Virus record (IMG/VR): IMGVR_UViG_3300021255_000139 | Direction: 5' to 3' (one strand) | DNA: 49,362 nt | Origin: a virus | Taxonomy: Duplodnaviria; Heunggongvirae; Uroviricota; Caudoviricetes | Shown: positions 43,098-45,660 of the stretch, one piece after another | Layout: each line of letters begins with the position of its first letter | How positions within the stretch are numbered: position 1 is the first letter of the stretch | Translations under genes and position numbers: made by a program | Notes under the pieces: generated by a model | Database searches by the model: none | What the model was told of the DNA's origin: nothing | The model's input: the letters and a program-made list of their open reading frames with translations, nothing else

Positions 43098-43211
43098 GGG
43101 GCAGTTGCTCAACTGGTAGAGCGTTTGACGGAAAATGTGTTTTGCAAAAAGCACAGACAGCAATCATTTTCTAAAATCAATTTGTTACAAGTTCGACTCT
43201 TGTCTGCCCCA
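43098..43211 (+). ncRNA. tRNA-like element E1 (Phe-like body) with a 48-nt structured insert in place of the anticodon loop
   Basis: Acceptor GGGGCAG/CTGCCCC-A, D arm GCTC/GAGC, AC stem TTTGA/TCAAT, T arm ACAAG-TTCGACT-CTTGT. Confidence 0.85.
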
Positions 43212-43215
43212 CTCA

Positions 43216-43273
43216 AAGGCACAAACAGCAATATTACAAGCATTTGACAGTTAATCAAAAAAGCGAGTGCCTT
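43216..43273 (+). ncRNA. Hairpin E2 with CAGCAA motif and an isolated GTT (Asn) anticodon arm
   Basis: AAGGCAC/GTGCCTT; TTTGA-CAGTTAA-TCAAA. Confidence 0.75.
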
Positions 43274-43355
43274 GGAAATACCATGTTGATGGTATCTGGT
43301 TTTCTTGACTGTCTCATTCTTGAAAACCTCCTCCATAAAATAAGTTGTGTTTGGT

Positions 43356-43424
43356 TCTCGATTTAGTTTATGTGATAAAACGTTCAGAAATGAAAGAAGC
43401 TGGATCATAACCAGCAGTCGAGAT
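43356..43424 (+). ncRNA. Mini-cloverleaf E3 (anticodon arm reduced to a GAAA hairpin)
   Basis: TCTCGATT/AGTCGAGA, TA-GTTT/AAAC, TTCA-GAAA-TGAA, GCTGG-ATCATAA-CCAGC. Confidence 0.6.
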
Positions 43425-43472
43425 TGGATATCAGATTTCTGTCATTTTTCTATATCCTCCTTATCGTTATAC

Positions 43473-43550
43473 GGAACTAAGAGACACTGGCAGCAACAAT
43501 AAAAATTTGAAAGCAAATAACAATCTCTCTTAGGTGTCTCGAAGAGTTCC
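43473..43550 (+). ncRNA. Hairpin E4 with CAGCAA motif
   Basis: GGAACT/AGTTCC and GAGACAC/GTGTCTC stems; AC-TGG-CAGCAA. Confidence 0.7.
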
Positions 43551-43556
43551 AATTAT

Positions 43557-43671
43557 GGAAACGACTTGGTGTAGCGGATTTCGTGGTTCGTGGGGCAGAA
43601 TCACTTGCAGCAACACTATTCAAATTCTTCTGCAAAAAGAACGGCTTCTGGTTCGATTCCAGACGTTTCCA
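43557..43671 (+). tRNA. tRNA-Cys(GCA)-like element E5 with expanded D arm carrying the CAGCAA motif
   Basis: GGAAACG/CGTTTCC-A, TTCTT-CTGCAAA-AAGAA, TCTGG-TTCGATT-CCAGA. Confidence 0.75.
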
Positions 43672-43682
43672 AAGCCCCCTCC

Positions 43683-43875
43683 GGGAAAGTAGTTTCAACG
43701 GATAAAACAGCACCCTATAAAAATGTTTCTTGACACGAAGATCATAGAAGCGTTTCTTGGTTAGTAAGCATTTGCCGAAAGCTATCTGGCTTCACTTTAT
43801 AAAGTAGTAGAAAGAAACTGACAGCACTTATTCAAGGGCAAGGTGCAGATATAGGTTCGAGTCCTATCTTTCCCA
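43683..43875 (+). ncRNA. tRNA-like element E6 with a 127-nt insert in place of the anticodon loop
   Basis: GGGAAAG/CTTTCCC-A, GTTT/AAAC D stem, GCACC/GGTGC AC stem, ATAGG-TTCGAGT-CCTAT. Confidence 0.85.
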
Positions 43876-43951
43876 TTTGTCGCAGAGGCGGCGATTAAAA
43901 TGTTATTCATCAACAAATAAATAAATACATAACATTGAGAGGTAATAAAAC

Positions 43952-45499
43952 ATGGGTTTTATGGACAAAATGAGCGGTGTTCTCAATGATGATTACAATG
44001 AGAGCATCACAGAGAATGGGGCGGTTGGATATAGAACAACCGGGAAAAACCTTCTCGATTTGAATTTTGCAGTAAGTTCTTTGCGTAATGCTTCTCCAGA
44101 TGATATCAGAGGAAGATTTGAACGGGCGTTTGCAGAGGACAATTTATATGGCTTGAAATGGCTCATGATGTGTCGTGATGCAAGAGAAGGTTTAGGAGAA
44201 AAACGTACTCCGAGAATTATCTTCAGATATCTTGCGGAAGTAGAACCTAATATCGCAAAAGCATTGATTCCGCTTATCCCGGAATACGGACGTTTCGATG
44301 ATCTGTTTGCTTTCTTTGGTACGAAGTGTGAAAAAGATGCACTGAAATATATCAAGGATCAGTTTGAAGAAGATCAGCGATGCATGAGAGCAAAGAAACC
44401 AATTTCTCTGCTGGCAAAGTGGCTTGCGAGTGAAAATGCTTCTTCCAAGGAGACAAAGAAAAATGCGAAGATCATTCGTAACTATCTTGGTCTTTCTTCA
44501 AGAAACTATCGCAAGGAACTTACAAAGATGCGTTCGTATCTGAAAGTTGTTGAAGTGGATATGTCTGCTAAGAATTGGAGCAGCATCAACTATGAAGCTG
44601 TTCCGTCAAAGGCGAACTTGCTTTATAAGAACGCATTCTTGCGTAACGATGAAGAAAGAAGAAGGGCATATCTCGAATCTCTTTCAAAAGGAGAAGCTAA
44701 AATCAATTCTTCGGTTAACTTCCCACACGATATTGTTCATCAATATGTGAAAGGAAGTTGGTATGTCAATTCACTTTCTGTTGATACGGCACTTGAAGAA
44801 TTGTGGAAAGCACTGCCTGATATGGTCAAAGAAGAGGGAAATACCCTTGTTGTCCGTGACGGTTCTGGGTCAATGTGTGTAAGAGTTGATAACAATTCAA
44901 GCGTTACCGCTCTTGAAGTTGCAACTGCTCTTGCAGTTTACTTTTCAGAAAGATGCAGCGGAGAGTTTAAAGATAAGTTTATCACTTTCTCTTCTCGCCC
45001 GGACATCATTGATCTGCATAATTGTAAGAATCTTGCAGCCAAAATCAGAAGATGTTATCAGGAAGATGACTGCAGTAATACCAACATTGAAGCAACATTC
45101 GATCTTATCTTGACTACTGCTATTAGAAATCACATGAAACAGAGTGATATGCCAAAAACGGTATTGATTATCAGTGACATGGAGTTCGATAGTGCGACAT
45201 ATAGTTACTCTGGTTATGGTCGCAGAAGTGTCAATGAAAAGTTGTTTACAACTATCGAAAAGAAGTTCAGGCAAGCCGGATATAAACTTCCAAGACTGGT
45301 GTTCTGGAATGTAAATTCTCGAACAGGAACGATCCCGGTAAAAGAAAATGAACTTGGAGTTGCTCTTGTGTCTGGTTTTTCCGTGAATGTTTGTAAGATG
45401 GTACTTTCCGGCGAACTCGATCCGTACAAGTGCCTTATCGAACAGCTTGATGCAGCACGTTATCAGCCAGTCGAGGATGCTGTGAAAGATTTCATATAA
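43952..45499 (+). CDS. DUF2828-family protein (TROVE/Ro-like helical region + vWA domain)
   Basis: TENGA.GY..TG..LLDL, RDAREGLGE, PEYGRFDDL, LAKWL.SE, VPSKA...Y..AF...D; MIDAS DGSGSM, NTN, IISDMEFD, VFWNV. Confidence 0.9.
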   Translation: MGFMDKMSGVLNDDYNESITENGAVGYRTTGKNLLDLNFAVSSLRNASPDDIRGRFERAFAEDNLYGLKWLMMCRDAREGLGEKRTPRIIFRYLAEVEPNIAKALIPLIPEYGRFDDLFAFFGTKCEKDALKYIKDQFEEDQRCMRAKKPISLLAKWLASENASSKETKKNAKIIRNYLGLSSRNYRKELTKMRSYLKVVEVDMSAKNWSSINYEAVPSKANLLYKNAFLRNDEERRRAYLESLSKGEAKINSSVNFPHDIVHQYVKGSWYVNSLSVDTALEELWKALPDMVKEEGNTLVVRDGSGSMCVRVDNNSSVTALEVATALAVYFSERCSGEFKDKFITFSSRPDIIDLHNCKNLAAKIRRCYQEDDCSNTNIEATFDLILTTAIRNHMKQSDMPKTVLIISDMEFDSATYSYSGYGRRSVNEKLFTTIEKKFRQAGYKLPRLVFWNVNSRTGTIPVKENELGVALVSGFSVNVCKMVLSGELDPYKCLIEQLDAARYQPVEDAVKDFI

Positions 45500-45504
45500 A
45501 GCGA

Positions 45505-45660
45505 ATAGTGTACAAGACATTGAGAAAAAGTTCTAAATAAGGTCATTGTCATAAAGCCACACGCAGCAATCATCAAGTATTTGATTTTCTGTTTGGAAGG
45601 AATAAAAGTCCGATGAAATCGGGAAGAAGTTCATATGAGTGACTTGTGTATGCACACTAT
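45505..45660 (+). ncRNA. Structured element E7 with CAGCAA motif downstream of DUF2828
   Basis: ATAGTGT/ACACTAT outer stem; AAGCCAC-ACG-CAGCAA-TCAT...ATGA-GTGACTT. Confidence 0.65.

Follow-up and report, generated by a model that had tools for sequence, protein, structure and literature searches.

Ro60 and its Y RNAs form a classic yet poorly understood RNA quality-control particle. The docking sites of Ro60 lie beside the 5'-3' stem of the Y RNA and read GGUCCGA in animals and GNCGAAN0-1G or CGAA in bacteria and in phage phiLo; the partner RNAs are encoded beside Ro60, and in bacteria the Y RNAs contain a domain resembling a tRNA (PMC4201824, PMC12135203). In this study, we analyzed a phage-like DNA of 49,362 nucleotides (IMG/VR virus record IMGVR_UViG_3300021255_000139; this whole stretch is referred to as the window), in which six small RNA elements lie around a gene encoding a protein with DUF2828 and DUF7788 domains. 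The unit that defines these RNAs, here termed the handle, is a 7-bp helix followed by an NN(A/G) spacer, CAGCA(A/G) and a U-rich tail. Taken together, comparison across many loci and structural modeling suggest that the handle probably docks a Ro60-like DUF2828 protein, and that the RNAs constitute a Y-RNA-like partner family whose cargo is exchangeable.

The locus resembles the Ro60/YrlA-YrlB system (Rfam RF02553) in its overall build. Several small RNA genes stand on the same strand beside the gene of a (here predicted) ring-plus-von Willebrand factor A (vWA) protein, a short conserved single-stranded sequence next to a helix is the presumed docking site, and the rest of the RNA imitates parts of a tRNA, as in elements E1, E5 and E6 here, or often a single arm in stand-alone (S-type) elements. 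Furthermore, rsr-yrlA is linked to rtcBA, and the handle RNAs are linked to RNA-repair genes in the clade of the window. The parts, however, are different: DUF2828/DUF7788 takes the place of Pfam TROVE, its relationship to Ro60 being one of fold only, an R-C-R-C-N-N-A-CAGCAA block is present instead of GNCGAAN0-1G or GGUCCGA, and a locus contains up to about 11 copies, with the handle in two topologies. A phage-encoded Ro60 with partner RNAs (Yrl1 and Yrl2) encoded just upstream has been described for the Thermus phage phiLo (PMC12135203; PDB 9KOP, 9L5Y). Although this protein is the best structural match of our DUF2828 model, the two share 18% sequence identity, and the phiLo RNAs form a stem-bulge-stem with CGAA, lack CAGCAA and have no reported tRNA-part cargo (PMC12135203).

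Handle-bearing RNA elements in the window

The non-coding stretch, the six elements and the gene are arranged as follows.

42879-43951: non-coding stretch of 1.07 kb between an MrpR-like gene and the DUF2828 gene
43098-43211, + strand: E1, tRNA-like, H-type (local hairpin) handle replacing the anticodon loop; from the Rfam tRNA match, the fold and the helix check
43216-43273, + strand: E2, S-type (helix closing the whole RNA); 7-bp stem 43216-22/43267-73, spacer AAA, CAGCAA at 43226-31
43481-43540, + strand: E4, S-type; 7-bp stem 43481-87/43534-40, spacer UGG, CAGCAA at 43491-96
43557-43671, + strand: E5, tRNA-like, H-type handle in the D region; from the sequence and its 7-bp hairpin
43683-43873, + strand: E6, tRNA-like, 127-nt insert in the anticodon loop; from pairing and relatives
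43952-45499, + strand: DUF2828 + DUF7788 gene (Pfam), encoding a 515-aa protein
45554-45645, + strand: E7, S-type, downstream of the gene; stem 45554-60/45639-45 with 6 of 7 pairs and one C·A mismatch

A preliminary description of this DNA had listed the motif AC-N3-CAGCA(A/C) in these six elements, five upstream of the DUF2828 gene and one downstream, with the adjacent helix as an enclosing stem in E2, E4 and E7 and as an internal hairpin in E1, E5 and E6. All six strings and their distribution around the gene were recovered at the same coordinates, and the 7-bp helices were found in the described topologies, in E7 with the C·A mismatch. Across the window, ACNNNCAGCAM occurs 12 times compared to 1.74 expected matches, a count that 0 of 100 shuffles reach. 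Five of these matches fall inside the non-coding stretch, where about 0.02 are expected by our own arithmetic, and the sixth site (E7) lies 55 nt beyond the stop codon of the DUF2828 gene. The other matches (5149, 5923, 17305, 25136 and 48841) are located inside open reading frames, show at most five contiguous pairs and are explained by an excess of CAGCAA on the coding strand (40 on + vs. 8 on −). When all matches were checked for helices, a 7-bp helix was present only at the six flagged sites.

Conservation was assessed in the three close relatives L161, L162 and L163, whose DUF2828 proteins show 88, 87 and 80% identity and whose loci were aligned to the window. Folding energies of single sequences were mostly not significant (z −1.2 to +1.6 for E2, E4, E6 and E7), and the structures rest on comparison and not on energy. 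Among the tRNA-like elements, E1 matches the Rfam tRNA model (RF00005) above its cut-off (47.9 bits), a match that requires a 47-nt insert in the anticodon loop. Its handle comprises a 7-bp hairpin (43137-43154) with a GCAA loop, the spacer AGA and CAGCAA (43158-43163), all enclosed by the helix 43130-36/43166-72; the element is kept in all three relatives, with an altered outer helix in L163. E5 combines an acceptor stem, a Cys-type GCA anticodon arm and a T arm with a handle made of a 7-bp hairpin (43583-43604), the spacer UUG and CAGCAA (43608-13). It was found in two of the three relatives, and its hairpin shows three compensatory pairs in L161. The 7 bp of the E6 handle (43725-31/43812-18) surround an insert of about 80 nt and are followed by the spacer UGA and CAGCAC (43822-27). 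For this element, which is present in all three relatives, the Rfam tRNA model gives a weak partial match to the T arm and an acceptor-like helix (43836-43875; 19.3 bits, below the gathering score of 29 bits). The E6 insert is shorter by its inner ~70 nt in L161, where the GUUUCUU/AAGAAGC helix is retained, and the motif reads CAGCAY in 4/4 sequences (window and L161-L163). ARAGORN called no tRNA in the window, including at E1, E5 and E6. These three elements share acceptor, T and partly D arms with ordinary or insert-bearing phage tRNAs, but differ from the ordinary ones in that the handle replaces the anticodon loop or the D region.

E2 (46.2 bits) and E4 (34.7 bits) are seed members of R1, our covariance model of the S type. 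E7, which is outside the seed, was recovered as well (22.2 bits, E 0.003), and R1 has no other match in the window. The interior of E2 is an anticodon-stem-loop look-alike with the loop CAGUUAA. While E2 is kept in all three relatives, E4 is present in L161 and L162 and absent from L163. E7 shows the spacer ACG, CAGCAA at 45564-69 and a long interior with a 31-nt insert; equivalents in the same place exist in L161-L163, L001-L006 and L081.

Several further observations concern this array. In the look-alike loop of E2 (43245-43257), GUU-AA is kept and the base corresponding to 'U33' is A, G or C in the window, L161 and L162, and never U; the E5 loop of L162 is changed similarly (AGGCAAA). Such a replacement of 'U33' might render anticodon-loop mimics non-functional or uncleavable. 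Directly after E2, L161 (1832-1901) and L162 (1807-1876) carry an extra S-type element that the window lacks (about 43276-43330); near-identical phages thus differ by gain and loss of S-type elements. Finally, a structured element devoid of CAGCAA, E3 (43356-43423), is closed by the 7-bp stem 43356-62/43417-23 and contains an inner hairpin (43400-14) whose 7-nt loop AUCAUAA resembles a Met anticodon loop. E3 is conserved in all three close relatives (fold z −2.15).

The handle across 160 loci and its linkage to the DUF2828 gene

In order to define the handle beyond the window, 160 loci with homologues of the DUF2828 protein (42-69% identity) were compared, 80 from IMG/VR and 80 from prokaryote contigs taken at one genome per species. 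The resulting family logo reads G-R-C-R-C, N, N, A (81%), CAGCAA and then a U-rich stretch. The preliminary description was right about a helix strand preceding the motif and about the fixed distance of 3 nt. Its fixed AC, however, does not extend to the family, where position −5 is A in 49% or G in 37% and position −4 is C in 77% of the instances (R-C), nor is the spacer freely variable, as its last base is A (81%) or G (11%). Similarly, CAGCA(A/C) describes the six sites in the window, but the family-wide consensus is CAGCA(A/G), and CAGCAC in E6 represents the variant CAGCAY. Across protein clades, the only variants of the motif are CAGCAG, CAGCCA, CUGCAA and CAGCAY.

The permuted topology seen in the window recurs throughout these loci, with the 7-bp helix and NNA-CAGCAA appearing either as a terminal stem (S type, median length about 64 nt) or as a hairpin, usually capped by a tetraloop, within a tRNA-like body (H type). 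Counting unique copies, we found 306 of the S type and 165 of the H type. As regards the terminal stem, at least seven contiguous pairs with a downstream partner were detected in 161/277 instances compared to 29 for shuffled strands. All seven stem pairs show double changes, amounting to 108 compensatory cells vs. 26 in shuffles, for a seed that was chosen for pairing. In the RNAalifold consensus, the 7-bp S stem is the only paired part and the motif is left unpaired. Of the remaining 360 instances, 138 show a hairpin of at least 6 bp (23 in controls), and 114 of these hairpins have exactly 7 bp and 92 a 4-nt loop. A T-loop lies within 130 nt in 136/165 H-type instances of the class with at least 5 bp, and the interiors of S-type elements contain look-alikes of an anticodon arm or a T arm in 110/306 cases, compared to 33 in shuffled interiors.

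Two groups of loci show additional features. A clade associated with Lachnospiraceae (42-47% identity; L144, L145, L149-L153 and L157) carries a conserved box, GTGAACCACCGGTTGCTCGACA, about 100-200 nt 5' of a single S element, and its motif is often CAGCAG. In L010 (8039-8158), L008 (8568-8687) and L019 (8821-8964), phage tRNA genes in the downstream arrays contain inserts of 45 to 70 nt without a CAGCAA handle, which represent a different kind of interrupted tRNA.

The enrichment near DUF2828 genes that the preliminary description had proposed to look for is evident in both sets of loci, where the motif is concentrated on the strand of the gene. Within 2 kb upstream, the 80 IMG/VR loci contain 208 strict matches on + and 0 on −, with 9 more just downstream, and the 80 genome loci contain 135 matches on + vs. 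4 on − in the same zone. Elsewhere in the 160 loci, or on the opposite strand, the motif is almost absent. Per locus, the median is five copies. Likewise, 276 of the 278 matches of R1 across all loci (214 + 64) are on the strand of the gene. The only two opposite-strand matches both occur in L138 (2608-2673 and 2784-2841, − strand), where the protein match begins at residue 133, suggesting a rearranged or broken gene. Applying a stricter pattern to five whole phage genomes, we found 15 of 23 matches beside the DUF2828 gene.

The linkage also holds in the reverse direction, starting from the RNA. A search of IMG/VR with a 14-base RNA pattern returned at least 111 stretches, of which 80 loci were analyzed, and 31 of these contained a bona fide element, i.e., one with the closing stem. 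The gene was near the bona fide element in 13 loci, always on the same strand, and elsewhere on the contig in a further 12/17, including 10/11 near-complete genomes. Overall, among the loci analyzed, DUF2828/DUF7788 was present on 25 of the 30 contigs that have a bona fide element and could be searched. For the bare string without a stem, the gene was present on 4/17 contigs.

Homologues of the DUF2828 protein were detected in 710 phage records. In the mycobacteriophage Faith1, three S elements lie in an unannotated gap after a DUF2828-type gene (gp55), whose product is annotated as 'Ro-like RNA binding protein'; Felix O1a (FO1a) contains three S elements located among the tRNAs that follow gp42, the DUF2828 protein of Felix O1, and two precede the DUF2828-type gene of Listeria phage P61. 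At the DNA level, blastn of the window's locus against 50,697 phage records gave no match.

Other neighbors of the DUF2828 gene vary. An RNA ligase and Thg1 adjoin it in only 8-9 of 160 loci, namely in the closest relatives of the window, and both were therefore rejected as partners of the motif. The remaining loci have unrelated neighbors, such as an adenylosuccinate-synthetase-like gene, a cysteine desulfurase or radical SAM genes. In some loci associated with Oscillospiraceae, a class-V aminotransferase (cysteine-desulfurase-like) gene directly follows the DUF2828 gene (L053, 5641-6792; L096, 4632-5798), and a weak RNA-ligase-like gene comes next in L096.

A Ro60-like protein as the probable partner

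The 515-aa protein was modeled with AlphaFold2 (predicted local distance difference test, pLDDT, 74). Searching the PDB with Foldseek, the top 13 matches were all Ro60/TROVE proteins (E down to 4e-10), and the five best matches in Swiss-Prot were Ro60. In VIA, Ro60 fills ranks 1-10, the best match reaching Z 16.0 over 410 residues. Here, the scores were 16.0 and 14.1 for Ro60 of the Thermus phage phiLo and 10.9-13.0 for bacterial and animal Ro60; the Ro60 matches span 374-413 residues, whereas matches to the vWA domain only do not exceed Z 9.8. The MIDAS (metal ion-dependent adhesion site) motif DGSGS (DxSxS) is conserved, with D303, S305 and S307 invariant in 16 homologues. The DUF2828 protein is thus predicted to be a structural homologue of Ro60, consisting of a HEAT ring and a vWA domain, and, because the model matches Ro60 over its full length, it is a credible RNA-binding partner.

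We read the handle as a docking site because the known system of Ro60 and Y RNAs follows the same logic with different parts. By this analogy, CAGCAA would be the single-stranded core of the handle, and the 7-bp helix together with NNA-CAGCAA would dock the Ro60-like protein. The rest of the RNA would be exchangeable cargo, ranging from a T arm or an anticodon-stem-loop look-alike to a complete tRNA-like body. The helix could either close the whole RNA (E2, E4 and E7) or form a tetraloop hairpin set into a scaffold that resembles a tRNA (E1, E5 and E6), because only the helix and its 3' flank would matter. The least certain step is the purpose, which may be tRNA-centered RNA repair with the RNA as a scaffold, quality control, or a decoy for host anticodon nucleases. 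We consider docking of a Ro60-like DUF2828 protein by the handle of a Y-RNA-like family to be likely. The preliminary description had likewise proposed the motif as the DUF2828 binding site, and all predictions of that proposal that computation could address were borne out.

A number of observations weigh against it. The relationship to Ro60 is structural only and comes from a model of medium confidence (pLDDT 74): Pfam reports DUF2828 and DUF7788 and no TROVE at E up to 10, and a profile search against PDB sequences yields E 0.36 for the MIDAS region only. In addition, the handle is unlike every known Ro60 site, and the analogy may not extend to the docking mode. Five of the 160 gene loci have no motif at all and, conversely, G007 (the 53-kb contig of L170, rated 100% complete) carries an S-type element and no DUF7788 match. 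The motif is also nearly invariant between protein clades and offers little protein-RNA co-variation to use; as a test of direct contact, co-variation was dropped for this reason.

Recognition of the handle by a factor other than DUF2828 is one alternative: the handle could signal processing or stability to a host or phage RNase, or could be bound by an RNA-binding protein of the host, with DUF2828 acting on the cargo or only in the same pathway. Such a factor would suit polycistronic arrays without called internal promoters or terminators, from which the RNAs must be cut out, as well as the S elements that can sit far from the DUF2828 gene among tRNA arrays, and the complete phage G007. We nevertheless regard it as unlikely. 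The H-type motif lies inside tRNA-like bodies, where cutting would destroy the RNA; the two-way co-occurrence with DUF2828 persists across unrelated phage groups and hosts while the other neighbors change; and conservation of a host factor would have to span Mycobacterium, Salmonella and Listeria. It is much harder to accept that tRNA genes carry the helix and CAGCAA as an intron or small mobile insert, which a phage ligase/Thg1/DUF2828 pathway removes to give working tRNAs. E1, E5 and E6 do resemble tRNA genes with inserts of 47 to 127 nt, and the phage of the window encodes an RNA ligase, Thg1 and a CCA-adding enzyme. However, the majority of copies are stand-alone S-type elements without a tRNA body, the inserts differ in position (D region, junction or anticodon loop), about 150 of the 160 loci have no adjacent ligase or Thg1, Rfam shows no features of group I or group II introns, and removal of the E1 insert would, as read from the sequence, leave no canonical anticodon loop.

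We likewise find it very improbable that CAGCAA pairs with another RNA (complement UUGCUG) or makes a tertiary contact and is no protein site. A strongly conserved motif that is unpaired in the consensus fold does recall seed sequences, but no conserved complement was seen inside the elements and no target was identified; moreover, that it keeps a constant distance from a helix of exactly 7 bp in both topologies is more in line with shape recognition than with simple pairing. That the matches arise by chance, or as a by-product of codon usage or base composition, can be dismissed. The strand bias of CAGCAA accounts for the five full matches inside open reading frames, but the six sites lie outside coding sequence, each with a 7-bp helix, the shuffles never reach the observed count, and hundreds of co-located and co-oriented copies occur in other genomes, which already refutes this explanation.

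Among described RNA families, YrlA was considered and rejected. In the window its model has no match at E up to 10, none was found in the loci of Faith1, FO1a and P61, and related loci reach about 25 bits compared to a gathering cut-off of 69 bits. These sub-threshold matches lie at junctions of adjacent tRNA-like elements (L015, 3347-3451; L019, 3552-3624; L026, 3327-3404). Chen et al. (2014) warn that tandem tRNAs give YrlA false positives, and the mycobacteriophages in their study are those with a true TROVE Ro60, e.g., ET08 (PMC4201824).

A resemblance also exists to the dictyostelid Class I RNAs (Rfam RF01414; Kjellin et al. 2021, PMC7919456), multi-copy RNAs of about 60 nt with a short stem joining their ends and a variable rest. 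In these RNAs, the 5' strand of the stem is immediately followed by a conserved motif with ACAGCAA at its end (Rfam consensus CCUUACAGCAA). The Class I stem has 6 bp and a 4-nt gap to CAGCAA, compared to 7 bp and 3 nt in the phage handle, and the known binder is the RNA recognition motif protein Rnp1A (PMC7919456). The Rfam model gives no support for Class I membership of the phage handle RNAs, which was rejected: the one match, inside E5, scores 21.1 bits (E 1.1; cut-off 41.5), and no S element was matched, be it in 66.8 kb of sequence searched at E up to 1 or among the three contained in a 261-nt piece searched at E up to 10. Going by the resemblance, Class I RNAs could be a eukaryotic branch of the handle RNA family with a eukaryotic DUF2828/DUF7788 protein. 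We think this doubtful in the extreme; if true, a second Ro60/Y-RNA-like particle would be common to viruses, bacteria and eukaryotes.

Searching Rfam 15 at gathering and permissive thresholds returned tRNA, tmRNA and sub-threshold noise (SNORD11, HTH-XRE, bxd_6, SECIS_4 and sR43), with no family covering the S elements. A full-text literature search gave no description of the handle RNA family, and the DUF2828 papers found were unrelated. The family, which is widespread in phages, therefore appears to be undescribed, being outside Rfam 15 and the searched papers.

Gene setting and significance

Nearly all genes of the window are on the + strand. Around the array, and further upstream, the following features were identified.

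23726-24063: tmRNA (118.9 bits), tag ANEYKAAA
38892-40175: CCA-adding enzyme gene
41907-42878: MrpR-like gene
42990-43017, + strand: sigma-70-type promoter (TTGACA, 16 nt, TG-TATAAT), 12/12 consensus match
45666-45695, + strand: terminator-like hairpin (11 bp, 5-nt loop, then UUU), read off the sequence; the terminator scan gave no call
45747-46835: RNA ligase gene with a PHA02142 oligonucleotide-binding (OB) domain, 3' of the DUF2828 gene
46968-47855: Thg1-like gene, 3' of the RNA ligase gene

With its own tmRNA, CCA-adding enzyme, RNA ligase and Thg1-like enzyme, the phage encodes a kit for tRNA repair and ribosome rescue. The promoter at 42990-43017, which is also kept in L161-L163, would drive E1-E6 and the DUF2828 gene, and the hairpin at 45666-45695 may end the unit. 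A promoter and terminator scan of the window called no internal promoters or terminators within the RNA array. The RNAs are probably transcribed together with the gene from the promoter at 42990 and subsequently excised.

The system is present in cultured phages, namely Felix O1, P100-like Listeria phages, cluster L mycobacteriophages and KVP40-like Vibrio phages, and its handle, small and sharply defined on a cargo of tRNA parts, lends itself to an easy mutational test. In annotation, handle elements at present escape notice or are wrongly scored as unusual tRNAs; those of Felix O1a, Listeria phage P61 and Faith1 lie where the records annotate nothing. The combination of handle and cargo suggests that tRNA mimics are presented in a modular manner to enzymes or host nucleases. 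These results point to a second, far more widespread Ro60-like branch in phages and prophages, whose DUF2828 protein is too diverged from Ro60 for recognition by sequence methods.

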